Shown here: positions 10,412-32,941 of the stretch, piece after piece | How the letters are laid out: each line of letters begins with the position of its first letter | How positions within the stretch are numbered: position 1 is the first letter of the stretch | Translations under genes and position numbers: made by a program | Source of the DNA: Patescibacteria group bacterium | GTDB taxonomy: Bacteria; Patescibacteriota; Saccharimonadia; UBA4664; SCTI01 | NCBI GenBank assembly: GCA_004297735.1 | Contig: SCTI01000002.1 | Span: forward strand, 350,180-414,179 | Length of the DNA stretch: 64,000 nt | Direction: 5' to 3' | Notes under the pieces: model-generated | What the model was told of the DNA's origin: nothing | The model's input: only the letters and a program-made list of their open reading frames with translations | The model's database searches: none

Positions 10412-12383
10412 TGGCGGTTTGGATCAGAGCTATCGGCGGGCAATAAAGTTTGTTGCCAGTCAGCAAAATAAAAGTGGCAGTTTTGATTGTTTTAGTAGTT
10501 CAAGCGTAGATGATTTTACTGGCGCTGATAGGCATCAGGCAATTTTGCCAATGGCGGTGATATTGAGGGCGCTTAATGGGATGGAGCTTCCGGATGCGAT
10601 TAGGGTTAGGCGAAGTCTAGCTGGTTTTTTGGCGGGGCAGGTTGGGGAGCATGGCAGCTTTAATTACTGGGTGAGAGGTAGTGATAGAGCTAGTCAGCAG
10701 CCGTATCCAGATGACCTGGATGACACTAGCTATGGCTGGTTGGCCCTGACACTCGAGGATCCCAATACGCTTAGCGCTCAGGTGCTAGCCAAGTTGGCTC
10801 AGCTGCTGATGGCCGTTGAGGTTGAGCCCGGTGGACCATATCGAACCTGGCTGGTTGGCAGGGCGGCGGATGCCGAATGGCGGGATGTAGACGTGGCTGT
10901 AAATGCCAATATTTGGTCTTTAATGAGGCGTTTGGGAGTAAACTTGCCGGGCCTTGAAGGATGGCTAACCGTGGCGGTAAAAGAGGGTGAATTAAGGTCG
11001 CGGTATTATCCGGGCGAGGCAGTGATTCTATACTTTTTGGCGGAATGGAGCCGCGGCGAACTTAGGAGTTTGTTGCAGGATCGATGGAGGGCGGAGCTGG
11101 CGCGTAAAGATCATAGCTTGTTAGAGCTAGCTTTGTTGACGGTGGCAGGGGTCTGGCTGGGAGTCGGTCGTTCGACGATTCAGCCGCTCGTGGAAGAGCT
11201 GATAAATAGTCAGGTCATGGACGGTTCGTGGCCGGCTGCAGGATTATGCTATGACCCCGCTAAGGCTGGGCGGTGTTACTACGCGGGGTCGGCGTCGATG
11301 ACAACCGCGTTAGCGGCCCAGGCGTTGTGTTTGGTGCAGGCAATGGACGGTTCGGTCGTGCCCAAGCCGGTTGCGATAGTAAAGTCTGCAAAAGCCGCAC
11401 CAATGTGGCCGGCGGTCAGGCGTCATATTCAAAGGTTGCCGCAGTCCGCCCAAATTTTGGCCGAACCAATTCTCAATAAAGTACACAAACTGGATGCCAG
11501 CCACGGGGTAACGGCGTTGGTGCCGCACATCATGTTACAGATTAAGCCCAAAAATAAAAAACTACCCAAAGGCCATCGGACGGCTCGCAATCACTTAATT
11601 TTAGGGTCACTTTATGGTTGGTTGGCCTACACCGCTTCGGATGACGTTCGGGATGGTGAGGCCGATTACCGGTTGCAGCCACTAATCCAGCTGTGGACTG
11701 GTCAAATGCGCAGCCATTTTTGGCAGGCCAGTGGCAATAGTGAGTACCAGCGATGGACTGACCGACAGCTGCAAATTATGGATATGGCGCACCATTGGGA
11801 GCAGCAAAACACCCGGTTTGAGGGTTCGAGAGTTCGGGTCGATGAGCTGCCGGAATACGGCAGTAGTCGCCGGTTGGCCGAAGGATCAAGTGGTCACTTA
11901 ATTGCGCCGGTTGGGGCGCTAGTGGCTTTGGGGTATGAGTATAATGGCTCGGTTAACCGAAAGTTAAAACTAGCCTTGCGTCATTTAATTGCCGCCCGTC
12001 AGCTACATGATGATGCTCATGATTGGTCGCAGGACTTGGCGGAAGGCCAAATTAATTTTGTGGCGGCTCAAGTACTTCGAGCAGAGTTTAAAAGTCAACG
12101 CGGCAAAACCCTCAACCTGGCCGATCCGCAAACTATGGCTGGTTTAAGACACCGTTTTTGGAGTAATACGGTTGATGACATTTTACCCCTGATTCAGCGG
12201 CATCTGTACGTCGCAGAGCGACAGCTGGCCGACGAGCCATTATTGGGTGGTCTAGAGGATCTAAGTAGGATGATTCAGCAGCTCAAGCAAACCACTCGAG
12301 ACACCTTAGTCCAGCGAAACCAAGCCCGCCGCTTTTTAAGTGAGCTTACTTTTGACCGAGTTGCTGATCGATCAGCTGTTTGA
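10398..12383 (+). CDS. hypothetical 661-aa protein with class II terpene cyclase / prenyltransferase-like alpha/alpha-toroid features (DLDDT motif, QW-like repeats)
   Basis: Overlaps the HK stop by 14 nt. PDDLDDTSYGW matches the DxDDT(A) motif of class II terpene cyclases. QQNKSGSF and QVMDGSW resemble QW / prenyltransferase-squalene oxidase repeats. C-terminal half unassigned. Confidence 0.55.
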   Translation: MKMIDGGLDQSYRRAIKFVASQQNKSGSFDCFSSSSVDDFTGADRHQAILPMAVILRALNGMELPDAIRVRRSLAGFLAGQVGEHGSFNYWVRGSDRASQQPYPDDLDDTSYGWLALTLEDPNTLSAQVLAKLAQLLMAVEVEPGGPYRTWLVGRAADAEWRDVDVAVNANIWSLMRRLGVNLPGLEGWLTVAVKEGELRSRYYPGEAVILYFLAEWSRGELRSLLQDRWRAELARKDHSLLELALLTVAGVWLGVGRSTIQPLVEELINSQVMDGSWPAAGLCYDPAKAGRCYYAGSASMTTALAAQALCLVQAMDGSVVPKPVAIVKSAKAAPMWPAVRRHIQRLPQSAQILAEPILNKVHKLDASHGVTALVPHIMLQIKPKNKKLPKGHRTARNHLILGSLYGWLAYTASDDVRDGEADYRLQPLIQLWTGQMRSHFWQASGNSEYQRWTDRQLQIMDMAHHWEQQNTRFEGSRVRVDELPEYGSSRRLAEGSSGHLIAPVGALVALGYEYNGSVNRKLKLALRHLIAARQLHDDAHDWSQDLAEGQINFVAAQVLRAEFKSQRGKTLNLADPQTMAGLRHRFWSNTVDDILPLIQRHLYVAERQLADEPLLGGLEDLSRMIQQLKQTTRDTLVQRNQARRFLSELTFDRVADRSAV

Positions 12384-12993
12384 GGTTTTGGTAGGTAAAG
12401 CTATCGGATTGTTGACCGTTAATGTAGAAGGTCGGGGTACCTTGTACGCCCAGGGCCTCACCATCGGATTTATCGGCTTCGATGAAGGCGGTATGGGTGT
12501 TGTCGCCAATCTCCTTTTTAAAGCGTTCAATATCGGCCACACCTACTTCGTTGGCGTACTTAATAAAGCTTTCACTTGGGTTTGATAGCTCACTCCACTC
12601 TTGCTGGTTGGCATACAGTTTACTGTTCATCTCCCAGTACTTGTTTTGGGCTCCAGCAGCCTCGGCAGCCTTAGCGGCAGCGATTGCGTTTTGGTGCATT
12701 GGGAGTGGGAAGTTGCGGAAAACAAAGGTGATCTTGTCGCCATACTCCTGTTTGATTCGCTCAACCACCGGCTGGGCCTGTCCGCAAGACGGACACTGGA
12801 AGTCACCAAACTCAACCACGGTTACCGAACCACTACCTTGCTTATGACTGTTGTCCCGAATCAACTTGCTGCTATCGGCTTTTTCGGTGCTGGCTGGCTT
12901 ATCGCTGCCGCTGCCGGTTAAAACAAACAGTCCAACCATGGCGCCAACAACTAGCACTAAGATGGCGGTTAAAATTTTAGCTTCACGACTCAT
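12346..12993 (-). CDS. DsbA-family thiol:disulfide oxidoreductase (membrane-anchored, CPSC active site)
   Basis: N-terminal TM anchor and thioredoxin fold with FGDFQCPSCGQ. Confidence 0.8.
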   Translation of the reverse strand: MSREAKILTAILVLVVGAMVGLFVLTGSGSDKPASTEKADSSKLIRDNSHKQGSGSVTVVEFGDFQCPSCGQAQPVVERIKQEYGDKITFVFRNFPLPMHQNAIAAAKAAEAAGAQNKYWEMNSKLYANQQEWSELSNPSESFIKYANEVGVADIERFKKEIGDNTHTAFIEADKSDGEALGVQGTPTFYINGQQSDSFTYQNLKQLIDQQLGQK

Positions 12994-13429
12994 CTGAACT
13001 CCTCCATTCCACGATCATGCAACCAATAATAACAGTAAAAGCTACTAACGACATAAATGGGATGGTGATGAACCCAAGTAGGTGCACCTGGACGGTGGTG
13101 CAGGATACACCTTGGACACAGGGGGCGAGTGTATCGGGGATGATCTTCCACTGTAACAGGGTGTGGTACAGGGAGATGATCCAGCCGATTAGTGACAGCG
13201 GGAGAACGTACTGCCAAAGTTGGCGCTCGCGGCGAACGATTCCAACCGCCAAAATAATCGCTAACGGGTACATCATGCTGCGCTGGTACCAACACAGCAC
13301 GCAGGGCGGTAGTTTAGCGATCTCGCTGAGGGCGAGGCTCCCCAGGGTGGCAACCAGGGCCTGGGTAAAAGCGATGTAACGACTGTAGATAACCGACTTA
13401 GGCATATTGACCATGATAACCCGCCGCAT
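12983..13429 (-). CDS. disulfide bond formation protein B (DsbB/BdbC family)
   Basis: 4-TM protein with the CVLCWYQR motif typical of BdbC/DsbB. Upstream of, and overlapping, the DsbA-like gene. Confidence 0.7.
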   Translation of the reverse strand: MRRVIMVNMPKSVIYSRYIAFTQALVATLGSLALSEIAKLPPCVLCWYQRSMMYPLAIILAVGIVRRERQLWQYVLPLSLIGWIISLYHTLLQWKIIPDTLAPCVQGVSCTTVQVHLLGFITIPFMSLVAFTVIIGCMIVEWRSSDES

Positions 13430-19378: not shown

Positions 19379-22300
19379 TTGTTACATTTTGGAGATAATC
19401 GGTTGGACGATAATCGTTTGCAACAATCTGGATTGCAGGCTTCATCTCCGACACCAAACACCCCGCCTGGCGCGGGTCCTTTGGCGTACCAAAATGCGCC
19501 AGCAGCGCCGGCCGTTCCTGCTGCTGCACCAACATCAGCCCCTCGCCCCGCAGCCAAGACCAAGTTTGATCAGTACACCACCCCAAGCGTTAAAACCATT
19601 CCCGAATCAAAGCGCGCCGAACTAGAAAAGCTCAGTCGCCCCCGCCTTAATCGAATTAGATTAATCTTAACTATTCTGGTCATTATACTGGTGCTGGCAA
19701 TGGTCATACCGGTGACCTATATGGTGATTGATGCTATTCGGGCCGGACAGTCTAAGCAGTCGTCCCAAGATAAAAAGGGTGGGGAGTATGTGGTGACATC
19801 GATACCGCTAAGTGATTTGGTTAAAGCCGGGGATATTAGCATAAGCGATAGCCGACAGGTAAATATTAACGGTCAGCTGCGCGTTAATAACTCCTTAATC
19901 ATTGCCCCGAGCCAAGAGCCGGTTAACCCGGTTCAGGGACAACTCTATCTTAACCAGCAGACCAACCAGCTGTACTACTACAACGGTACCCAGTTTGTAG
20001 ATGTGGTGACCGGCGCCCAAATTGCTCAGTTAAATGCCGCAATTACGGCCAATAGCGCCCAAACCATTACCGTCGGAGCCGGTTTGCAACGAGTAGGGAA
20101 TGAGCTGATTAACACCGGCGTACTGGCTTTGCCACAAGCTTTGGACGTGGTCAGCTCCCCGACCTTTGGTGGCTTAAACCTCAGCTCGGCACTGGCGGTT
20201 GGTAACGGGGGAACCGGATCGGCCACTGCGGCGGGCGCACGGGTTAATCTGGGGGCGGCAGCGAGTGGCGCCAACACCGACATCACCAGCTTAGGAGCCC
20301 TAACTGCCGTCAGCCCTACGGCGGGTGTAACCTATAATTTCAACTCAGATCCGGCCGGCACCTACCAGTTCTGTACCACCGCTGGCAACTGCTCGGTCGT
20401 TAACGGTATAACCGGTACCGGCACCGCTGGTAGGCTGGCCAAGTTCTCCGGCTCTCAGGTTGTGGCCGACTCACTGCTCAGCGAAACCGGCACTACCGCG
20501 ACTGTAAACGGTGATCTGGCTGTAACCGGTAACATTTCTGGTAACGGCGCCAACATAACCAGCCTGAGCGCTAGCAATATCAGCACTGGAACGCTTAGCG
20601 ATAGCCGACTCAGCAGTAATGTGGCGCTACTCAATCGCAACAATCAGACCTTTACCGGCACCAACCATGTTTTACGCAATAGCAGCAACACCGGTAACGC
20701 TTTTCAGGTTCAAGATGCTAGCGGCAGCAACGTCTTTAATGTAGATACAATTACGCATGACATCACCACCGATTATGGCAACCTTTACATCAATGCTCTT
20801 GGTACCGTTAGCCCAACACTGTCCTCAAGTGGCAGTGGGGGAACGCTGACGGCTGCAACCTATTACTATCGGGTTTCGGCGTATAGCGCTGGCAGTCAGC
20901 TATCGGGCGCAATCGATACCACGCCCTCTTCGGCAACGACTACGGGGTCAACCAGCAGAAACATGATCAGCTGGTCGGCAGTTAGTGGAGCCGCCGGCTA
21001 CTATATTTATCGCTCAACCGATGGAGGTGCGACTTATCGTCGAATTGACGTTGGCAATGTGACCTCGGCAATCGATAACGGCACAACCTACACCTGGACC
21101 GGAGCGGATTACAGTGGTGACAAGTGGTTCAACTATACCGGCAACATCTACCTTGAGCATGGCGCAGGGGTTAACTTTAATTCTGGTAATGCCCAAATCG
21201 CTGAGGATTTGAGGGGAGAGCTAGAGATTGCCAACTATAATACAGGTGGCCTTTCGGGCGGGGTAGCGGTGTATTCAGATTATTTTGGCGTATACGACAC
21301 AACCGATTATCACACCAATCTGTATATGGATCGTGATGGTAAAACTACATTTTCAAATCGAGTAGATTCGACGGCTGGGTTCTTGGTTCAGGATGCGGCG
21401 GGTGGCAACCTGCTGGTGGTAGATACATTAAATCAGCAGTTGGCGGTGGGCCCGTCAGCAGTGCCAGGCAATAGTGTGCTGACGGTGGGTGGCGATACCA
21501 CGAGTTCTGCTGGCGGCATCACTTTGGGCACCGATACCAACCTTTACCGGAGTGCAGCCAATACTGTTAAAACGGATGGCAATTTACAGGCTACTGGATC
21601 GGCGGCTTTTGGAAGCACCGCAACAATATTAAATACTGGCGCGCAGCGGGCGACTGTAAATATCGATGAAAGTTATGCCGACACAACCGGCGTGTCGACT
21701 GTTAATGGGCTCAATTCCACTGTAACGGTAAATTCACCCTCCGCAAATAACACCGGCTTTCTTGGTCTTGATAGTGTGGTGTTGCTGGACGGAGATAGCA
21801 ATTATACTGGCTCGGCTATCGGGTCGTATAGCTATGTTCAGAAAACTGGGGCAGGCACGGCAAGCTGGCTTAACGGAGCCGAGCACGATGTTTATAACTA
21901 CAGCACCGGGACCGTAGCCAATGGGGTGGGTGTGTTTGGATACCTCAACCAGGCTAGTGATGCAGGCACCATTACTAACGGCAACGGTGTGTGGGGGCAG
22001 TCTGAGATAAGTGGGGCCGGTTCAATTCAGAACGCCAGTGGTTTAATTGGGGCGGTTTATAACTATGGAACCGGCACCATTACGAGTGGCTACGGGTTAC
22101 TGGTTAAGCCTGCCACTAATAGTGGTGGCGGCTCATTTGCCAATAATTATGGTGTTTACATTAATGACCAGTCAGCCGTTGGATCGACGAGTAGCTACAA
22201 CTTGTACTCGGCTGGGGCTAACGCTAAAAACTACCTTGCTGGTAAGTTACAGGTTGGCAGTAGCAATACAGCCTCTCGCGTTAACATTGGCACCGATACC

Positions 22301-22861
22301 GATACCACCTCGGCAGGAGGGATTACCTTTGGCACCGATACCAACCTGTATCGCGGGGCAGCCAATCAATTAAAGACCGACGATACGGTACAGATTAAGA
22401 CGGCCTCCGACTCAACCACCGCCTTCCAGGTTCAAAATGCTAGTGGCACCGCGCTGCTAACTGCCGATACTAGCGGAATGACCATAACGGTACAAGCCCT
22501 GACGGTAACCGCTAACTTAACGGTTAATGGGCATTTAATTACTGGCGGGAGCACGCCATCGGCGGCGGTTAATGCCAATGCTGGTGTTGGGGCAAGCTGT
22601 ACGGTAAGCGGCACCGATACCGCCGGTACGATTACGGTTACGACTGGGTCGAGCGGGGTGGTGGCCGGTACGCAGTGCGCTATTACTTTTGCCACCAACT
22701 TCGGCTCGGCTCCACGAGTGGTGCTAGGGGCTTCGAGCGCCGGCGCTGGTCCACTTGATCCTTATGTCGCGAGTAGCGCAACCAACACGTTTAGTATTGG
22801 AGTGGGTACCGCTGGCGCCACCGGCACGGCCTATAAGTTTGATTATGTGGCGGCCCAGTAA
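19379..22861 (+). CDS. giant (1160 aa) membrane-anchored surface fibre/adhesin-like protein with Gly/Thr/Ser/Asn-rich repeats
   Basis: Own promoter (tataat 19349-19354). Pro/Ala-rich N-terminus, one TM (LILTILVIILVLAMVIPV), then a long low-complexity beta-rich region with internal repeats at about 21.50-21.59 kb and 22.30-22.39 kb. Confidence 0.7.
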   Translation: MLHFGDNRLDDNRLQQSGLQASSPTPNTPPGAGPLAYQNAPAAPAVPAAAPTSAPRPAAKTKFDQYTTPSVKTIPESKRAELEKLSRPRLNRIRLILTILVIILVLAMVIPVTYMVIDAIRAGQSKQSSQDKKGGEYVVTSIPLSDLVKAGDISISDSRQVNINGQLRVNNSLIIAPSQEPVNPVQGQLYLNQQTNQLYYYNGTQFVDVVTGAQIAQLNAAITANSAQTITVGAGLQRVGNELINTGVLALPQALDVVSSPTFGGLNLSSALAVGNGGTGSATAAGARVNLGAAASGANTDITSLGALTAVSPTAGVTYNFNSDPAGTYQFCTTAGNCSVVNGITGTGTAGRLAKFSGSQVVADSLLSETGTTATVNGDLAVTGNISGNGANITSLSASNISTGTLSDSRLSSNVALLNRNNQTFTGTNHVLRNSSNTGNAFQVQDASGSNVFNVDTITHDITTDYGNLYINALGTVSPTLSSSGSGGTLTAATYYYRVSAYSAGSQLSGAIDTTPSSATTTGSTSRNMISWSAVSGAAGYYIYRSTDGGATYRRIDVGNVTSAIDNGTTYTWTGADYSGDKWFNYTGNIYLEHGAGVNFNSGNAQIAEDLRGELEIANYNTGGLSGGVAVYSDYFGVYDTTDYHTNLYMDRDGKTTFSNRVDSTAGFLVQDAAGGNLLVVDTLNQQLAVGPSAVPGNSVLTVGGDTTSSAGGITLGTDTNLYRSAANTVKTDGNLQATGSAAFGSTATILNTGAQRATVNIDESYADTTGVSTVNGLNSTVTVNSPSANNTGFLGLDSVVLLDGDSNYTGSAIGSYSYVQKTGAGTASWLNGAEHDVYNYSTGTVANGVGVFGYLNQASDAGTITNGNGVWGQSEISGAGSIQNASGLIGAVYNYGTGTITSGYGLLVKPATNSGGGSFANNYGVYINDQSAVGSTSSYNLYSAGANAKNYLAGKLQVGSSNTASRVNIGTDTDTTSAGGITFGTDTNLYRGAANQLKTDDTVQIKTASDSTTAFQVQNASGTALLTADTSGMTITVQALTVTANLTVNGHLITGGSTPSAAVNANAGVGASCTVSGTDTAGTITVTTGSSGVVAGTQCAITFATNFGSAPRVVLGASSAGAGPLDPYVASSATNTFSIGVGTAGATGTAYKFDYVAAQ

Positions 22862-23397: not shown

Positions 23398-26300
23398 ATG
23401 AGTACCGAAAAACAGCCGCAATATAACTGGGTCGCCCGCTTGACCGGGTTCTTTTTAAGGAACACCCAGATTGCTATTGTGCTGTTTTTGGTAATTGTGG
23501 TGAGCGGGCTGGTTTCGCTATTAAGCTTGCAGCGAGAAGGATTTCCGCAGGTGCCGGTTAAGGTAGCGGTAATTCAGACCGTATATAAAGGGGCTGCCCC
23601 CGCCGAGATTGAGCGAAGTGTCACCAACCCAATCGAGACCGCGCTCAAGGGCAACAACAACATCAAGGAGCTTAGCTCACAGTCGCGTGATAGTGCCTCG
23701 GTAATTACGGCCACAATTGAGCCAAGTGCCGATTTGGACTCGGCGATACAAGAGATTAACGGTAAGGTAGCGGCGGTTCAACTACCGAACGATGCCGAAA
23801 AGCCAAGCGTGTTTCAGCCCGCTACCGGTGGAGCCGCTTTCACCTATGGGCTAACCGGCGGATCAACTCTCGACCTACTTAAGCAGGGCCGCATCTTTGA
23901 GCAAGAGATGAGCCAGGTAAAGGGGGTGAAAGAGGTTAAGGCCGATGTTAACGCTGAGGCTGAGGTTGAGGTAACATTCGATACCGTCAAGCTGGTGGCT
24001 AACGGTGTTGATATTAGTAAGATAAGCGACACAGTGGCGGCGTCTAATGTTAACATTCCGGCCGGACAGGTCACCGCCGGTTCGGTCAACTCAACCGTTA
24101 TTATGGCTGGACGGCTGGAGTCGCTGGAGCAACTACAGGAGGTTCGCTTGCCAACTGCTGGTGGTGGGGTGGTCCGCTTGGGCGACGTGGCAACGGTGAG
24201 TCAGCGGGTGAATAAGGACGATCAGTTGACTCGCTTTGGTTACCAAAAAGAGGGTAAGCCGGTTGGCGTTGAAGGTTTGACCTACAGCATTCAGCTGCGT
24301 GACGACGCCGATATCTTACAGGTTGATGGAGAGCTGCAAAAGGCGGTCGAACGGCTAAAGCAAGACAAGATCATTGCCGAGAACGTAGAGGTGGTACGGC
24401 TGTATGATCAGGCTGAATCAACGCGTCAGCAGATTCACGAGATCGTGGCCGGTGCCTTTGGTGAGCATTGGGAGAATATTGGCTGGTTTGGGCTGGCCGG
24501 ATTCTTGTTTGGTGGTATTTGGCTGCTAGCCATTGCCATGGCGGTGTTTGTAAACGTTCGAGCGGCTTTGGTGGCCGCCATATCGGTGCCATTAAGCTTT
24601 TTTGTGACGGTGACAACGCTGTATGTCGGCGGGGTGACGCTTAATACCCTAACGCTGTTTTCGATGATTCTGGTGCTTGGTTTGGTGGTTGATCCGGTGA
24701 TTGTGGTGCTCGAGGCGCTACAGCGCTATAAAGACCGTGGTTATCAAGGAATTGAGGCGGCCATGCGAGCGGTCGATAGTGTGGGTCTGGGCGTACTGAT
24801 GGCGGTATTAATTTCAACAATCGTGTTCATTCCATTTGGTATTGTATCGGGTGTGTTTGGCGAGATTATCCGCTTTATTCCGATCACGGTGATCCCGGCC
24901 TTAGTGGCATCCTTCTTTGTACCAATTCTGTTTTTAACCGCGATTGGCAATCGAGTACTTAAATCGCATCACAAAGACGGTGAGGATACCAGCGAAGAAG
25001 CTTCGCTGTGGCGAGTTAGTTTGTGGTTCCAGCGGACCAACCGCTCAATCTTAAAGCGTTGGCCGCTACAAGTGGCGATCATCGCCGTGGCGGCGGTTCT
25101 ACCAATCGCAATTGCCGGGTTCCTGTTTGGCACCGGCCGGATTGAAAGCGTTCAGTTTTCGAAGCCGGATGATACCGAAGCCTTAACCGTGACGGTCAGC
25201 TACCCTGCCGCCCGTAGCACGGCGTCGGTTGAGCAGCTGGCTCAAAAAACCGAGCAAGCATTGAGCGATCATGGAGAGATTCGGAGTTACCTGTACCAGC
25301 AGCAATCGCCGGGGAGCTTTACAATCCTGGCCAACCTAACTCCTCCTAGCGAGCGTGAGCGTAAGTCCACCGAGATTGTTGATGATATTCGCGGCGAGCT
25401 ACCCAGTGAGCCGGGACAGGTTTACGCTAGCGCCGAAACGCTGGGAAGCGGCACGCCGGTACCGGAGTTTCCGGTACAGCTTCAGGTTTACGATAACGAC
25501 CAAAAGAAGTTAAAAGACTTTTCGGTTGCTGCCGGCGAGTACTTGCGCGGGGTTGAGGGGGTTAAGCGAGTTTCGGATGGCTACACCGATGGCGATCCAG
25601 CTCAAATCACGGTTACTCCTAATATTGCTTCTTTGGCGGCGGTTGGTTTGACGCCCGCCAGCTTTGGCGGACAGATTGCCGGTGTGATTGGTGAGCAGGA
25701 TCTGACCAAACTCCAGCTTGATAGCGGCGAGGTAGCGGTTATGGGCCATTACAGTAACGGAGCCAAGCCGGCCACCGAAAGCGATATTGCCGCCTTGACC
25801 GTTAGTACGCCAAGTGGTCCGGTTGCGGTTGGCAGTGTGGCTACGGTTACGTCTGCACCAGGTATTGGCTCAATCAACCATTTTAACGGCAATCGTTTTG
25901 CTACGGTTAAGGCCCAGCTGAATGAAGGTGTTGATCAGTTTGCAGTACAGGAAAAGCTAAACACTTGGGCAAAAGATAATCGCGAACGCTTTGGCCTGCT
26001 CGAGGATGCATTTGAGTCAAAGGGCGAAGGTGACGAAATTGTTAAGTCGTTCCAAGAGCTGTTTGTGGCGTTGGGCGCGGCTATCTTGCTTACCTACGTG
26101 GTGCTGGCACTGTTCTTCCGCTCCTTCTTGCAGCCACTAATTATCACCTTTGCGGTGCCGCTCAGCTTTATTGGGGTGTTCCCGGCGCTATATTGGTTTG
26201 GCGGCGGTCAGTTTGGCTTTTTGGAGATCTTGGGCATGATCACCCTGGTCGGAATCGTGGAGAATGTTGGTATCTTTGTGATCGACTATGCCAACCGTCG

Positions 26301-26589
26301 GGTTAAGGAGGGGATGGATCATCGTGATGCAATCGCACTTGCCACCGCGGTCAGGTTCCGGCCAATCTTCCTGACCAAGGTGTGTGCGTTGGGTTCGTTG
26401 TTGCCCCTGGCGATCATTAGCCCATTTTGGCGCGGCTTGGCGGCGGTGATTGTGGCCGGTATCTTAACCTCCGGCATTACATCGCTGTTTACCACACCAA
26501 TTTTGTACCATTGGGTTGAAAGCTTTACCGCTTGGCGCCACCGTTTTGGTTCACGCATATCGGCTCGTTGGCGCCGTCGTAACGCCTAG
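23398..26589 (+). CDS. RND-superfamily efflux transporter permease (AcrB/MMPL-like)
   Basis: 1063 aa, two 6-TM bundles with large extracytoplasmic loops. aggag RBS. Directly after MarR. Confidence 0.8.
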   Translation: MSTEKQPQYNWVARLTGFFLRNTQIAIVLFLVIVVSGLVSLLSLQREGFPQVPVKVAVIQTVYKGAAPAEIERSVTNPIETALKGNNNIKELSSQSRDSASVITATIEPSADLDSAIQEINGKVAAVQLPNDAEKPSVFQPATGGAAFTYGLTGGSTLDLLKQGRIFEQEMSQVKGVKEVKADVNAEAEVEVTFDTVKLVANGVDISKISDTVAASNVNIPAGQVTAGSVNSTVIMAGRLESLEQLQEVRLPTAGGGVVRLGDVATVSQRVNKDDQLTRFGYQKEGKPVGVEGLTYSIQLRDDADILQVDGELQKAVERLKQDKIIAENVEVVRLYDQAESTRQQIHEIVAGAFGEHWENIGWFGLAGFLFGGIWLLAIAMAVFVNVRAALVAAISVPLSFFVTVTTLYVGGVTLNTLTLFSMILVLGLVVDPVIVVLEALQRYKDRGYQGIEAAMRAVDSVGLGVLMAVLISTIVFIPFGIVSGVFGEIIRFIPITVIPALVASFFVPILFLTAIGNRVLKSHHKDGEDTSEEASLWRVSLWFQRTNRSILKRWPLQVAIIAVAAVLPIAIAGFLFGTGRIESVQFSKPDDTEALTVTVSYPAARSTASVEQLAQKTEQALSDHGEIRSYLYQQQSPGSFTILANLTPPSERERKSTEIVDDIRGELPSEPGQVYASAETLGSGTPVPEFPVQLQVYDNDQKKLKDFSVAAGEYLRGVEGVKRVSDGYTDGDPAQITVTPNIASLAAVGLTPASFGGQIAGVIGEQDLTKLQLDSGEVAVMGHYSNGAKPATESDIAALTVSTPSGPVAVGSVATVTSAPGIGSINHFNGNRFATVKAQLNEGVDQFAVQEKLNTWAKDNRERFGLLEDAFESKGEGDEIVKSFQELFVALGAAILLTYVVLALFFRSFLQPLIITFAVPLSFIGVFPALYWFGGGQFGFLEILGMITLVGIVENVGIFVIDYANRRVKEGMDHRDAIALATAVRFRPIFLTKVCALGSLLPLAIISPFWRGLAAVIVAGILTSGITSLFTTPILYHWVESFTAWRHRFGSRISARWRRRNA

Positions 26590-27722: not shown

Positions 27723-27909
27723 ACCACTCCACTCTTTAGCATTAGCACTATATCAAAGTATAGTAAAACAACCGATTTGATGCAAATTAGCCCTTAACGC
27801 TTAAGGTTAATTTTTCTCGGAGAAAACCGGCTTTTTCAGGTGAGTTTTTATTGACAAAGGAGCAACCATTAGCTTAATCTGAAAACCAGGTTAATTAAGT
27901 GAGGAAAAC

Positions 27910-28107
27910 ATGGCTTACAACCATACGAATTCAAAGGGTCAGACCTATTATCTACACCAGCGCGACGTAACCCTAAAGGGTGGCCGCCAGCAACGTATTT
28001 ACTTCTTTGCCCGCGAGGTCAAGGATGGAGCGATTGACGCATTGCCAGAAGGTTACGTGGTAGTTGAAAACCCACGCACCGGTCTGCCGATCCTCAAGAA
28101 GGGCTAA
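27910..28107 (+). CDS. small hypothetical protein (65 aa)
   Basis: aggaaaa RBS, ttgaca -35 at 27853. Followed by terminator. Confidence 0.4.
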   Translation: MAYNHTNSKGQTYYLHQRDVTLKGGRQQRIYFFAREVKDGAIDALPEGYVVVENPRTGLPILKKG

Positions 28108-28128
28108 ACCTTTTAGTCCAACTACCAA

Positions 28129-28156
28129 GACCGCCCAAACGGGCGGTTTTTGGTTT
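28129..28156 (+). terminator. rho-independent terminator
   Basis: ccgccc-aaac-gggcgg stem followed by tttttggttt. Confidence 0.5.
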
Positions 28157-28265: not shown

Positions 28266-29303
28266 ATGCGCCAGCTGTTTGTAGCTGTGGTTTTGTTGTG
28301 CGCGTTGGCCTTCCCGGCAAGCGTACAGGCAGCTCCATACTTCGATTTCGGCGTCCATGATGATGGCGCCGTTGTGTTTAATCGCGACCATCAGCGCCAG
28401 CCGGTGCTGAGGCGGGCGCGTGACATCGGCGCCACCTGGCTCCGCACCATCATCTACCGTGATCGCGTTCAAGGCGGTAACTTTCGGGTTTACCGGCGTT
28501 CGATTCGGGATGTCTACCGCCATCATTTTCACGTTCAAGCGGTAATTGAATGTAGCGGTCAGGCCTGGACACCGGATAGCTTTGCGGCCTACGTCAAACG
28601 GGTGGTGCGGCAGCTCCAACCATTAGTGCGACGCTGGAGTATCTGTAACGAGCCCAATCAACCTGGCTGGCTAACCGCTATACCGGGCTACGATCTACCG
28701 ACCACCTACCGCTGGCTGTACCTTGCCGGCTACAGCGCGGTCAAACAGGTTCAGCCTCAGGCGGCGGTGCTGTTTGGCGAGCTTAGTTCCAACTACTACC
28801 CGCTAGAGTTTATGCGGAAGGTGTTTTGCGATCAGGGCGATTTGGATGGTAATTGCACTCAGCTTAAGACCAGCTGTGTGGCTTACCATCCTTACCAGCA
28901 GGAAAGCCCGCTATCACCCAGTAATGTGCCGTTTACGGTTGGCATTGGCTCGCTTAACTTACTGGTTGATGATCTCGATCAGCTCCATGCAAAAAACCTG
29001 TTAACCACCGCCAATGGCGTTGATCGTCCGCCACTGTGCCTAACCGAGTTCGGCTACCAGAGTCGGGCTCGCGGTATACTGAGGGTCCGTAACGTACCGG
29101 ACGAGGTGCGCAAGCAGCGTTGGCGTGAGGCTTTTAACTTGGTTTGCAAGTCGCCGATCATCAAGCAGATCTTTCTGTATCAGATGCAGTCAGAAGCAAG
29201 GGGCCGGTGGGATACCAGCATCATGAGCCGGAGCGGTCAGCCGGATAAGACCTACTTTGGCATTCGCAGCTGGCGTTATGCTCACCCTGAGTGCATGCGT
29301 TAG
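28266..29303 (+). CDS. secreted glycoside hydrolase, clan GH-A (TIM-barrel)-like
   Basis: Signal peptide (AFPASVQA-AP). ICNEPN (acid/base NEP motif) and LTEFGY (nucleophile) spaced as in GH5/GH39-type enzymes. Confidence 0.55.
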   Translation: MRQLFVAVVLLCALAFPASVQAAPYFDFGVHDDGAVVFNRDHQRQPVLRRARDIGATWLRTIIYRDRVQGGNFRVYRRSIRDVYRHHFHVQAVIECSGQAWTPDSFAAYVKRVVRQLQPLVRRWSICNEPNQPGWLTAIPGYDLPTTYRWLYLAGYSAVKQVQPQAAVLFGELSSNYYPLEFMRKVFCDQGDLDGNCTQLKTSCVAYHPYQQESPLSPSNVPFTVGIGSLNLLVDDLDQLHAKNLLTTANGVDRPPLCLTEFGYQSRARGILRVRNVPDEVRKQRWREAFNLVCKSPIIKQIFLYQMQSEARGRWDTSIMSRSGQPDKTYFGIRSWRYAHPECMR

Positions 29304-29364
29304 CTTACGGCCACCCCATCTGGGGTGGCCGTTTAGATTAGGGGTCTTTACAATTAAAAAATAG

Positions 29365-31524
29365 TTGTTACGCTTAGGCCATAGCTACTTAAACCGATGC
29401 GGGATGGCATCAGACATGAAGCACTCAGCAAAGCTGATCGCAAAAAAGAGGCTAAATCGAAAACGGATCTTAATATTTACCGCTCTAGTCGCGTTGGCTG
29501 GAGTCGTGGCGATTATCACTTCCTTTGCCGCAGTTATTACCACTATTCAAGCCGAAAACATCAACTTTAGCCGTAAGGCCATTGGCTACGATCCCGCTAA
29601 AAAGGCCATTGCCTCGCTTTACTGGAACGCAAGTGGTTCTACTCAGGTAACCTTACCGACCAATACCACCAACCTGACCATTGTGGCTAAGGGCACTAGG
29701 TGTAACGGTTCCCCAATTATGACCGTTCAAATCGATGGCGAGCAGGTTGCTAGCATGCCGGTATCGGTTAACGCTTGGCGCAACTACTCGATCCCGCTCA
29801 ACCTTCAACCGGGCACCTATATTGTGTCGGTTAGCTTTAATAATGATTATGTCAGAGGGGGTACCTCTCCCTGTGATCGCAACCTGTTCCTTGATACGCT
29901 TAACTTTACCGGTAACGATCCGACCCCCAAGGTAACCACACCGCTCCAGGGGGAGAGTCTGACGTATGCACCCGGCAAGGCCAGTATTGGCACCGGCCCG
30001 ACGAGAGAAGAAAAAGCTTTATCAATGTGGTCAAATGGTATGGCTCAGGGGCAGCTTAATCTAGCCGGCTCATCTAACCGTCTAACCGCCTACATTAGAG
30101 GTGACCAGTGCGATGGTGCGCCATTTATGACGCTTTACGTTGACGGCAAGCAAGTCGTGGCTAAGCACGTCAGGTTTAATAACTGGGGACAGATATCGGC
30201 ACCGGTTGCGGTTGGCTCCGGCCAGCACACCGTAGCGGTTGGTTTCACCAATGATTATGGCCGCCTTAACAGCACAGGGTCATTTATTTGTGACCGCAAT
30301 CTACATGTCGATAAGTTGGTGTTTGAAGGCCCGATGCCGGTGCAGCCACCGGTGCAGGTACTGCCGACGGCGCCAACTGGACTCAAGGTTCTAAAATATG
30401 AGAATGGTAGCGTTACGCTACAGGCAACGGTTGATGCTAACACCGCTACAGCTGGCGTGGGATACACGGTCAACGGTCAGGCCGGGCCACCGGTTGCCGA
30501 TGCGGTGCGAATGGGTAGTGTAGTAACGATGACCATACCCAACATTCCACCTGGCGCAGCCATGGTTATGAAGATGGCCGGTAAGAACGGTACCGGGACC
30601 GGACCGCAAAGTGCTCCGCTCAACTTTACCGCCCCAGTGGCCGCACCAAACTCGCCCCCAACCGCCTTTACCGGCAGCGTGATCGGCATGCATGGTGGTG
30701 CTCGTGACATTGATTACCGGGCAACCCGAAGTCTTAAGCCAAAGCTGGTTCGCGTAGGTGGCTTGTCGGCGACGATGACTCGATCTCAAATCCAGGCAAT
30801 TGCGAGCGAGTACGCCAAGACTAGCACTCGTATTATTGCCCTGGTTGACTTTAATGAGGCGGCACCGAGTGAGGCCGAAAGCCGCAACATTGGAACCTGG
30901 GCTACCATACCGGGACTCGAGGCAATTGAGTTTGGCAACGAACCCTGGCTGCAAAATGAAAGTTGGGATTACGCTCAGTACGCCCGCAGCTATAAAGCGG
31001 CTTACGATGCGGTTAAAGCGGCCAATCCAAGTATGGTGCTGATTGCCCAGGGTGATTCAGCCAACCGTGGTCACCGTCCGGGCCTGCGGGTGATGCAAGA
31101 GATTAAAAACCTCGGTATTAAACCTAAGGCAATTCAAATCCACCCATATGGCCCCGACTACCTCAACCGACTGGGTGATGCGCGACGTGACCTAAAGGAC
31201 GTTGGCTGGTCCACCGGAGTTGATATTTGGGTGACCGAGGTTGGAGTTTCGACCGATAACGGCCGCACCGTTTACCAGGGTGGTACGCCTAACAACTATG
31301 GCTGGAATGCAGCCATGACCTATGCTGAGGCCGGTAAAACGATTGACCAGGTTACTTCTGACCTGCTGGCACAGGGCGTAACGCGCATCATTGTTTACAT
31401 GGGCACCGACTATCGTGCTCCAGGCACCTCGAACGAGCGTGAGTACTACTTTGGCTTAACCAAGACTGACGGTGGCGATAAGGGCGATTTAAGTACTGTG
31501 ATGCGCCGGCTGTTTAACCGCTAA
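29365..31524 (+). CDS. multidomain membrane-anchored glycoside hydrolase: 2x CBM-like beta-sandwich repeats + FN3-like + clan GH-A catalytic domain
   Basis: Likely start at MKHSAKL (29416) with signal anchor. Two ~130-aa repeats ending ..NDY..G.S.CDRNL.VD.L.F. C-terminal EFGNEPW and IWVTEVG motifs. Confidence 0.55.
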   Translation: MLRLGHSYLNRCGMASDMKHSAKLIAKKRLNRKRILIFTALVALAGVVAIITSFAAVITTIQAENINFSRKAIGYDPAKKAIASLYWNASGSTQVTLPTNTTNLTIVAKGTRCNGSPIMTVQIDGEQVASMPVSVNAWRNYSIPLNLQPGTYIVSVSFNNDYVRGGTSPCDRNLFLDTLNFTGNDPTPKVTTPLQGESLTYAPGKASIGTGPTREEKALSMWSNGMAQGQLNLAGSSNRLTAYIRGDQCDGAPFMTLYVDGKQVVAKHVRFNNWGQISAPVAVGSGQHTVAVGFTNDYGRLNSTGSFICDRNLHVDKLVFEGPMPVQPPVQVLPTAPTGLKVLKYENGSVTLQATVDANTATAGVGYTVNGQAGPPVADAVRMGSVVTMTIPNIPPGAAMVMKMAGKNGTGTGPQSAPLNFTAPVAAPNSPPTAFTGSVIGMHGGARDIDYRATRSLKPKLVRVGGLSATMTRSQIQAIASEYAKTSTRIIALVDFNEAAPSEAESRNIGTWATIPGLEAIEFGNEPWLQNESWDYAQYARSYKAAYDAVKAANPSMVLIAQGDSANRGHRPGLRVMQEIKNLGIKPKAIQIHPYGPDYLNRLGDARRDLKDVGWSTGVDIWVTEVGVSTDNGRTVYQGGTPNNYGWNAAMTYAEAGKTIDQVTSDLLAQGVTRIIVYMGTDYRAPGTSNEREYYFGLTKTDGGDKGDLSTVMRRLFNR

Positions 31525-31593
31525 TAAAAGCAAAACGCCCCACCGACCCAAGGCCGGTAAGGGCGCTTGCGCGGTAGGGCGCGGTGAGCGGGG

Positions 31594-31761
31594 CTAGTAG
31601 CCGGGCTCGAACTCGAAACCTTCGAGGTTTTGGGCTGCCTCGCTGACGCGGGCATCATCCTGATCGCGACAGGCCTTGGAGCAGGGCTGGCCGTCGCCGC
31701 TCGAGCGCAGGCAGGTCGGGCAGATCTCCTGGTCGACTGTGAACTCGTCTTCGTCCATCAT
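31594..31761 (-). CDS. small Cys-rich protein (55 aa; CPTC...C..C), high-GC islet
   Basis: aggagg RBS, ATGA overlap with the upstream gene. MMDEDEFTVDQEICPTCLRSSGDGQPCSKACRDQDD... Below the ORF-track cutoff. Confidence 0.3.
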   Translation of the reverse strand: MMDEDEFTVDQEICPTCLRSSGDGQPCSKACRDQDDARVSEAAQNLEGFEFEPGY

Positions 31762-32021
31762 CGCCTCCTAAAGCTGTCGGCTGTGAAAAAGAACCTGATG
31801 AGCTTGCCTTCCGTCACCCAGAACCCTCGGCGCCCGAAGCTTCGAAGAACGAAGTGGAGCGGAACCCAGATCGGCGCCAGTATGATGGCAAGGGCTAGGG
31901 CGAGGATGAACATGAAGGTGCCAACGCACAGCATGACCGCTGCGATCACGGCAGCAAGCATTCTCCGGAAGGGGCTTGTAACCTCAGTCCCCTTGCGCTC
32001 GACGCTCAACTTGGTTTTCAT
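31758..32021 (-). CDS. small membrane protein (87 aa), high-GC islet
   Basis: Two TM helices, GC3-rich codons. Overlapping plus-strand 143-aa ORF judged spurious. Confidence 0.35.
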   Translation of the reverse strand: MKTKLSVERKGTEVTSPFRRMLAAVIAAVMLCVGTFMFILALALAIILAPIWVPLHFVLRSFGRRGFWVTEGKLIRFFFTADSFRRR

Positions 32022-32133: not shown

Positions 32134-32209
32134 TGGTGGGCCCGGCTGGACTTGAACCAGCGACCAATCGGTTATGAGCCGACTGCTCTAACCACTGAGC
32201 TACGGGCCC
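32134..32209 (-). tRNA. tRNA with CAU anticodon, probably tRNA-Ile2 (lysidine)
   Basis: Cloverleaf GGGCCCGTAGCTCAGTGGTTAGAGCAGTCGGCTCATAACCGATTGGTCGCTGGTTCAAGTCCAGCCGGGCCCACCA. From memory it closely resembles enterobacterial ileX. tilS is encoded 750 bp away. Confidence 0.7.
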
Positions 32210-32300
32210 GTGATAATACTCCATGATTGTACCAGGTTGCTAACCGCTTGCAATCACCCGCTACCTGTTAATGCGTCGTCATTTGTATTACGCTTAAGGT

Positions 32301-32684
32301 ATGCAACGCGTTCGAGACCAGCTTCGTAAACTACACGTAGGCACCATTATTGGCGTGATAGTGGCGCTGTATATTGGTGTATATCTGGTTCAAACTATTC
32401 AAAAGAATTATGAGCTGCAAAAGCAAATTGATGGCTTACAGCAGGATGTGGCCGGCCTCGAGGTTGAGCAGGATCAGTTAAAGTATAAGATTCAGTACTA
32501 CCAAACCGAGGCTTTTAAAGAAAAAGAGGCGAGGGAGAAGCTGGGCCTGCAGCAGCCCGGGGAGAGCGTACTGATTCTGCCAAAAGACAATGCTCCAGCC
32601 GAAGATGAACAGCAGCAAAAGCCGGCAGCAACCCAAAAATCAAACCTACAACAATGGATTGATTTCCTGATGGGCCGTTCTTGA
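32301..32684 (+). CDS. septum formation initiator family protein (FtsB/DivIC-like)
   Basis: N-terminal TM then coiled coil (LQKQIDGLQQDVAGLEVEQDQLKYKIQYYQT). Confidence 0.55.
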   Translation: MQRVRDQLRKLHVGTIIGVIVALYIGVYLVQTIQKNYELQKQIDGLQQDVAGLEVEQDQLKYKIQYYQTEAFKEKEAREKLGLQQPGESVLILPKDNAPAEDEQQQKPAATQKSNLQQWIDFLMGRS

Positions 32685-32720
32685 CTGTAGGGGTAAAAGT
32701 TGGTAATATGCTGGGTACGT

Positions 32721-32797
<77 letters not shown>

Positions 32798-32866
32798 AGA
32801 AATTATGGACGGACTCGATCAGCGATTGCTGGTCGTTTTGTTTGTCGGTACAATTGTTTGGTACAT

Positions 32867-32941
<75 letters not shown>

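Follow-up and report, generated by a model that had tools for sequence, protein, structure and literature searches.

The DNA examined here is a 64,000-nucleotide (nt) stretch of contig SCTI01000002.1 (assembly GCA_004297735.1, positions 350,180 to 414,179 of the forward strand) from a Patescibacteria group bacterium of the Saccharimonadia; the whole stretch is called the window below. Near its middle lie two plus-strand genes, the only long open reading frames (ORFs) at the site. ORF1 (28266-29303) specifies a protein of 345 amino acids (aa) with a signal peptide at aa 1-22, predicted to be a secreted glycoside hydrolase (GH) of clan GH-A resembling PslG and family GH39. ORF2 (29416-31524; 702 aa from its ATG) encodes a multidomain glycoside hydrolase, presumably secreted or anchored, and follows on the same strand after a gap of 112 nt. 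The mechanically called ORF2 opens at TTG 29365 (719 aa) and the identical database protein at M18, which is ATG 29416; ORF2 residue numbers given here are those of the 719-aa frame. A first-pass annotation had described the two genes as adjacent, secreted TIM-barrel hydrolases of clan GH-A, a description upheld by confident structural models, fold searches and the conservation of the catalytic glutamates.

AlphaFold models were built on alignments of homologues. The ORF1 model has a mean predicted local distance difference test score (pLDDT) of 91.2 and eight beta/alpha units; that of ORF2 aa 430-719 scores 94.7 and has eight alternating strands and helices. Both are (beta/alpha)8 barrels, and a fold other than the TIM barrel was predicted for neither. 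In ORF2 the barrel, which belongs to an unnamed family, occupies aa 438-719 (30676-31521, plus strand). The NEP motif, at aa 128-130 of ORF1 and aa 525-527 of ORF2, places its N-E after strand 4 of the models (residues 121-126 of ORF1; residues 89-94 of the ORF2 catalytic domain), and the glutamate of the T-E-x-G motif (TEFG, ORF1 aa 260-263; TEVG, ORF2 aa 624-627) sits on strand 7 (257-262 and catalytic-domain residues 191-197, respectively). The predicted catalytic residues are thus the acid/base E129 (nt 28650-28652) and the nucleophile E261 (29046-29048) in ORF1, and E526 (30940-30942) and E625 (31237-31239) in ORF2, all read from the plus strand. The first-pass annotation had noticed these motifs, and their coordinates were confirmed; they are conserved in 28 homologues of ORF1 and 21 of ORF2 and are not chance tripeptides. 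The ORF1 alignment shows no variation at N128, E129, N131, H208 and P209 and keeps E261 in at least 90% of the sequences; in the alignment for the C-terminal domain of ORF2, the positions corresponding to N525, E526, H593, Y595 and E625 are invariant.

A Foldseek search with ORF1 returned PslG (5bx9 and 4zn2) as the best match, with an expectation value (E) of 1e-13 and a template modelling (TM) score of 0.69, and PslG and GH39 enzymes are the best structural matches for both barrels. The top structural neighbours all belong to clan GH-A (PslG, GH39, GH157, GH5_18, GH53, GH158, GH10, GH1 and GH2). Single members of both families gave sub-threshold Pfam matches only, all of them to clan GH-A models (Cellulase, Glyco_hydro_cc, GH39, GH42, GH1 and GH10). 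The two catalytic domains are themselves related: the hhalign comparison of the ORF1-family and ORF2-domain profiles gave a probability of 96% and an E of 3e-9 over 270 columns, with the catalytic motifs aligned. BLASTP of ORF1 against ORF2 is not significant (E 0.38), so that the link is made by profile-profile comparison only. Membership of both domains in clan GH-A is solid, because the fold, the geometry of the strand-4 N-E and the strand-7 glutamate, the profile links and the weak Pfam matches to GH-A models all agree.

The closest likeness is to PslG of Pseudomonas aeruginosa (CAZy family GH39; PDB 5bx9, 4zn2 and 9g17), a retaining endo-beta-glucanase of the Psl exopolysaccharide locus. 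PslG ranks first, or close to it, among the structural matches of both barrels and, like the predicted products of ORF1 and ORF2, is exported. A broad ORF1-family profile (A1) matches PslG over its full length (E 1e-20), aligning NEP with its acid/base and TE-x-G with its nucleophile; the corresponding chain indices, 139 and 250, are Glu165 and Glu276, the catalytic residues of the enzyme (PMC11912335). A further parallel lies in the homologues of the ORF2 domain found in exopolysaccharide (EPS) loci, as pslG is. The differences are considerable. Identity to PslG is only 15-17%; ORF1 lacks the C-terminal beta-sandwich of PslG (345 versus 416 aa; target TM 0.58); no match to PslG was found for the ORF2 domain at the level of sequence, and ORF2 adds two family 60 carbohydrate-binding modules (CBM60) and a fibronectin type III (FN3)-like spacer; and neither gene lies in an EPS locus. 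Both proteins end with the barrel (last helix 328-339 in ORF1), and in neither model was a C-terminal beta-sandwich found packed on the barrel. The accessory domains of GH39 beta-xylosidases and of the Bacteroides cellulosilyticus GH39 enzyme (4ekj, 6uqj, 1w91 and 5jvk) are likewise missing from the window proteins, neither of which matches the GH39 model PF01229, and the likeness to GH39 is no stronger than that to several other GH-A families. ORF1 is a single-domain, cysteine-rich barrel distantly related to PslG and GH39. Single-sequence searches of Pfam, NCBIfam, PDB sequences and PHROGs gave nothing for either catalytic domain, and among PDB sequences none matched the profile of the ORF2 catalytic family with E below 0.1. 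The two domains are possibly founding members of new GH-A families.

Both proteins carry N-terminal export signals. That of ORF1, MRQLFVAVVLLCALAFPASVQA/AP, is by eye a textbook Sec signal. The signal anchor claimed for ORF2 is present, as a Sec signal or anchor, at aa 18-57 (29416-29535, plus strand), with the basic stretch KKRLNRKR, a 23-residue hydrophobic core and SFA/A; the hydropathy maximum (2.6) falls at aa 35-58, and the RSFAA motif is kept in the ORF2 homologues P0122 and P0123. Behind the signal come two internal repeats with paired cysteines. Their local alignment (aa 56-195 against aa 196-335) scores 199, far above the 28.6 +/- 5.2 of 200 shuffles, and six copies of the repeat, from three proteins, all keep one cysteine pair and a set of D/N residues. 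The guess that these repeats were carbohydrate-binding-like proved right, since each exceeds the gathering cut-off (28.2 bits) of the Pfam CBM60 model, PF16841: module 1, at aa 58-184 (29536-29916; Pfam core aa 104-184; Cys113-Cys170), with E 1.7e-13 and 51.3 bits, and module 2, at aa 191-323 (29935-30333; Cys249-Cys309), with E 2.8e-12 and 47.4 bits, both on the plus strand. ORF2 as a whole matches CBM60 with E 1.7e-26 and 92.9 bits.

The ORF2 repeats share this Pfam match with the CBM60/CBM36 modules of Cellvibrio-type xylanases, and their invariant D, N-D, D-R-N and D residues and cysteine pair would fit a Ca-dependent beta-sandwich; CBM60 is among the carbohydrate-binding modules that use calcium for ligand recognition (PMC6852018). 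They differ in being a tandem duplicate attached to a non-xylanase catalytic family, each extended at its N-terminus by about 45 aa relative to the Pfam core, and a profile of the repeats detected no CBM60 or CBM36 chain in the PDB. Between the modules and the barrel lies a spacer (aa 324-437; 30334-30675, plus strand) ending in a Pro/Ala-rich linker. The proposal that it is FN3-like holds in part: marginal matches consistently point to FN3 (with a three-sequence profile against the PDB, neogenin FN3 at E 6.7e-4, LAR FN3 at E 0.0086 and NCAM FN3 at E 0.06, over positions 9-110), while the match to Pfam fn3 (E 0.15, 12.7 bits) stays below the cut-off of 25. Judged from such sequence matches, the FN3-like identity of the spacer is weakly supported.

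The binding modules raise the question of whether the enzymes are ordinary extracellular depolymerases of the xylan, galactan or beta-glucan type, scavenging plant or algal polysaccharides to feed a sugar-fermenting ultra-small bacterium and unrelated to any host surface. CBM60 is classically attached to xylanases and is found in GH10 and GH11 architectures (PMC8121702), Pfam describes the family as Ca-dependent and xylan-binding, and the structural neighbours of the barrels include GH53 galactanases, GH10 xylanases and GH158/GH128 beta-1,3-glucanases. Yet neither catalytic domain has a sequence-level match to GH families acting on plant polysaccharides, the best structural neighbours are PslG and GH39 enzymes, and the Solirubrobacterales members of the ORF2 family, described below, are found in loci for EPS synthesis rather than degradation. 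The repeats, moreover, match no CBM60 sequence of solved structure and may thus differ in specificity from the family at large. We regard scavenging as unlikely.

The two genes had been read as a pair; comparison with relatives shows that they are not. ORF1 is followed by a terminator-like hairpin (29308-29339, plus strand) of sequence GGCCACCCC-ATCT-GGGGTGGCC, then TTTAGATT, which folds as RNA with -27.8 kcal/mol (z -4.1) and is kept in relatives. Five other related contigs have a homologue of ORF1 (54-65% identity) at the corresponding position, in the conserved order MarR, RND pump, 193-aa ORF, 166-aa ORF (minus strand), 65-aa ORF, ORF1 and a variable slot, after which come tRNA-Met (minus strand), DivIC, two tRNA-Met, TilS, FtsH and MurJ. 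ORF2 is in none of these five contigs. When the window was compared by blastn with the relatives L001, L091 and L092 (about 73% identity), homology ran through ORF1 and the hairpin, ended at 29333-29336 and restarted at 31524-31528. In these relatives no more than 6-11 nt separate the two breakpoints; it follows that about 2.19 kb (29337-31524, plus strand), comprising an 80-nt leader and ORF2 and nothing else, has been inserted between two convergent terminators. The second of these, a hairpin with an 11-bp stem and T-tail belonging to small convergent minus-strand genes (31537-31562, minus strand), forms the right border of the insertion and is also kept in relatives. Thus ORF2 is a recent, lineage-specific and clean single-gene insertion behind the ORF1 terminator. 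ORF1 belongs to the core genes of this Saccharibacteria-type lineage and has been inherited vertically. A consensus scan of the ORF2 leader found no sigma-70-like promoter, and the GC content of ORF2 (0.533; 0.558 at third codon positions) is not anomalous relative to its neighbours and gives no compositional signature of transfer. Full-length homologues of ORF2 occur in other Saccharibacteria, with 57-58% identity overall and 75% in the barrel, at an unrelated locus, away from any ORF1.

The insertion largely refutes the idea that ORF1 and ORF2 form a co-evolved two-enzyme operon, acting in synergy on one substrate and coupled to an RND exporter and a DsbAB pair. Their common strand, adjoining position and 112-nt gap, their distant homology, and the predicted export and the cysteines that both share would suit such an operon; the strong terminator hairpin between the genes, the absence of the 2.19-kb insertion from all syntenic relatives and the ORF2 homologues elsewhere that have no ORF1 neighbour do not, and we consider the idea most improbable. 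The claimed closeness to both of these partners was overstated. The RND pump (23398-26589) is three small genes away from ORF1; its synteny and that of MarR with ORF1 are kept, yet one of the intervening genes lies on the opposite strand. The DsbAB pair (12346-13429, minus strand) lies 15 kb from the hydrolases, beyond an F-type ATP synthase operon. It consists of a 215-aa DsbA-like thioredoxin and a 148-aa DsbB/VKOR-like membrane protein with an 11-nt overlap. Functional coupling of DsbAB or the RND pump to the hydrolases was ruled out by distance and synteny; the DsbA/DsbB pair, as part of the same genome, could oxidise the conserved cysteines of the exported hydrolases.

From genome to genome, different cargo fills the slot that is bounded by ORF1 and the minus-strand tRNA-Met: ORFs of 143, 122 and 272 aa, an ORF of 192 aa, ORFs of 52 and 146 aa, or ORF2. 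Because the cargo differs in each genome, the slot looks like an insertion hotspot.

Searches for the ORF2 catalytic domain uncovered a large family: out of 1.84 billion, 1,893 cluster representatives match at E<=1e-3, and 308 reach E<=1e-30. When a single genome of each species was scanned with peptide patterns derived from the alignment, which biases the taxonomic picture, the scan found 79 loci, nearly all in soil Actinobacteria of the Solirubrobacterales/Thermoleophilia (Conexibacter, Svornostia and many metagenome-assembled genomes, MAGs), several Solirubrobacterales genomes having more than one, and in addition one Saccharibacteria MAG. Identities to the ORF2 domain fall into two bands: about 30% for the bulk of the Solirubrobacterales paralogues and 52-75% for a close clade. 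The closest named relative, at 75%, is from a Candidatus Saccharibacteria MAG; the cultured Svornostia abyssi has a copy at 69%, and the nearest actinobacterial copies stand at 68-69%. This actinobacterial subgroup carries RTX repeats in place of CBM60 and FN3. Besides Saccharibacteria proteins, the close clade includes these Solirubrobacteraceae RTX-repeat proteins from contigs of 71-73% GC (with Svornostia abyssi), two proteins with dockerin-like N-termini from contigs of 47-49% GC and one protein from a 70% GC contig. Since 68-69% identity between Patescibacteria and Actinomycetota is seen here for a protein that is not universal, the similarity means that the ORF2 catalytic domain has crossed phyla by horizontal transfer. 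The barrel has evidently been shuffled among targeting modules of CBM60, RTX and dockerin-like type.

Some details of this family may be recorded. In L086 (5365-8191) and L087 (1009-2142) the catalytic domain is joined to a dockerin-like N-terminal segment and not to CBM60, and L086 has another dockerin-match protein and an RND/MMPL transporter nearby. The close-clade protein P0132 is surrounded (L088, 1-4660) by packed small same-strand ORFs with stop/start overlaps that have no PHROG matches; the region may be a mobile element or a phage whose host has high GC. L011 and L041 (CAMCUD010000002.1 and CAMCUD010000001.1), labelled as a MAG of Bifidobacterium breve isolate TrH-03may19-71, have 73% GC and Solirubrobacterales-type genes, among them one for the ORF2 catalytic domain fused to RTX; the label looks wrong. 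For ORF1, the surroundings of its distant 467-aa relatives (thiamine genes and unknown ORFs) are uninformative.

The substrate of the family was approached through the genes that adjoin its members. In one Pfam run over 114 immediate neighbours from 38 Solirubrobacterales loci, the commonest families were Wzy_C (14), Glyco_trans_1_4 (12), Glycos_transf_1 (11), CbiA/ParA-type P-loop proteins (6) and PMT_2 (5), with Wzz/P-loop kinases, sugar epimerases/dehydratases and Polysacc_synt_2 among the rest. Locus L012, which reads GT1, GT1, hydrolase, Wzy and a Wzc-like Wzz-plus-P-loop protein, is a Wzy-dependent EPS locus with a resident glycanase. The psl operon, with pslG, has the same arrangement of a glycanase inside an EPS locus. 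Hydrolases such as that of L012 belong to the same catalytic family as ORF2 aa 438-719 and keep all its invariant residues; they differ in having about 30% identity and long low-complexity N-termini, with no CBM60 or FN3. The context in relatives points to EPS, and not a peptidoglycan-type cell wall, as the target.

Whose EPS this might be is a separate matter. Self-directed remodelling, in which the enzymes would trim the surface polysaccharide or EPS of their own cell as PslG does for Psl in Pseudomonas, would agree with the conservation of ORF1, a core gene, at one and the same position in five related genomes, with the likeness of both barrels to PslG and with the Actinomycetota homologues that adjoin the EPS machinery genes of their own genomes. 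We hold it to be quite unlikely for these two genes, near which no glycosyltransferase, Wzy or Wzx genes were found within the window; sister genomes do without ORF2, which came in as a single gene and whose two added binding modules and spacer would be typical of enzymes acting on an external, insoluble substrate.

Cultured Saccharibacteria are epibionts on Actinomycetota. Together with the EPS-locus home of the family and the PslG-like fold, this epibiosis is the reason for proposing a bacterial EPS or surface heteroglycan as the substrate. The explanation that we favour, with moderate confidence, is that ORF1 and ORF2 are separately transcribed, exported, retaining beta-glycanases of clan GH-A and that they most likely act on such a polymer. 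Hydrolysis should be retaining in both enzymes, by analogy with every characterised GH-A family, and the closest structures (PslG, GH53 and GH158), which are endo-acting, suggest endo-action. ORF1 would be secreted by the Sec pathway. ORF2, once exported, would be kept on or near the cell surface by its N-terminal signal or anchor; its two Ca-dependent-type CBM60 modules would hold the polysaccharide, the FN3-like spacer would give reach and part binding from catalysis, and the C-terminal barrel would cut the chain internally. Cleavage would proceed by double displacement, with E526 as acid/base and E625 as nucleophile in ORF2 and E129 and E261 in the same roles in ORF1. The target would be a polysaccharide of neighbouring or host Actinomycetota, cut for access or for sugars, rather than peptidoglycan.

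Several points weigh against this explanation. The profile of the close ORF1 subfamily (A4) is linked only weakly to such enzymes, reaching a GH39 xylosidase with E 0.0045 and PslG with E 0.5, and CBM60 is, as already mentioned, classically associated with xylanases. The EPS-locus context comes from paralogues only about 30% identical to the ORF2 domain, and the RTX-bearing relatives (e.g. L010), which are the closest actinobacterial copies, lie outside EPS loci. Within the window, no EPS or glycan-uptake genes flank ORF1 or ORF2, whose neighbours (MarR, the RND pump, small unknown ORFs, tRNA-Met and DivIC) do not make up an EPS locus. The taxonomic picture carries the bias of the pattern-based scan. 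When contig GC is set on a neighbour-joining tree without support values, lineages of low and of high GC are intermixed in the close clade, so that transfer may have run in either direction, and the basal member of that clade, P0132, sits in a 70% GC contig (L088).

A bolder extension would make ORF2 an epibiont weapon: a Solirubrobacterales EPS-locus glycanase, acquired or exchanged, fused to two CBM60 modules and a spacer, and displayed to breach or graze the EPS coat of that very clade. We put this forward as a tentative idea that is probably not correct as it stands. A literature search on Saccharibacteria and Solirubrobacterales returned only soil community surveys and no host-epibiont link.

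The remaining features of the locus flank the two hydrolase genes. Directly upstream of ORF1 is a 65-aa ORF (MAYNHTNSKGQTYYLHQRDVTLKGG...; 27910-28107, plus strand), which has a same-size counterpart at the same place in all syntenic relatives and is possibly co-transcribed with ORF1. A Pfam scan gave no match for it. The stretch that contains it is the best-conserved DNA of the region relative to L003 (82% over 27831-28150), exceeding ORF1 itself. Downstream of the insertion, two small minus-strand ORFs (31594-32021) encode an 87-aa membrane protein (31758-32021) and a 54-aa cysteine-rich acidic protein (31594-31758); they overlap as ATGA start/stop, and AGGAGG serves the 54-aa ORF as ribosome-binding site. 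In L091 and L092 a homologue of the 54-aa protein comes directly after ORF1. The two ORFs are ancestral residents of the variable slot, separate from the hydrolase genes. A minus-strand tRNA-Met (32134-32209) closes the slot here and in relatives. It is one of three tRNA-Met (CAT) genes around DivIC (32134-32941), the other two being on the plus strand, with the same layout in L001 and L003. Farther upstream, ahead of MarR and the RND pump, a 1160-aa ORF (19379-22861, plus strand) has no Pfam match and is possibly a large surface protein. At its position the relatives have long ORFs that run off the loci, of 2443-2490 aa in L003 and L004, 872 aa in L092 and 1009 aa in L091, those of L004 and L092 with faint to weak Kelch/beta-propeller matches.

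As clan GH-A glycanases with carbohydrate-binding modules, the two enzymes are ordinary in kind; the parts worth following are the single-gene insertion and the link between Saccharibacteria and Solirubrobacterales, which the ORF2 domain ties together at 68-75% identity. Neither catalytic family is covered by a Pfam model, and both are candidate new CAZy families with PslG and GH39 as relatives. Interest in PslG-like enzymes comes from biofilm dispersal, and a version naturally armed with binding modules could serve as a scaffold. Should ORF2 indeed be an epibiont weapon, it would be a sequence marker predicting Thermoleophilia hosts for this uncultured Saccharibacteria lineage. The association of the family with EPS loci offers a starting point for work on host range and on the passage of ultra-small epibionts through the polysaccharide coat of their hosts.

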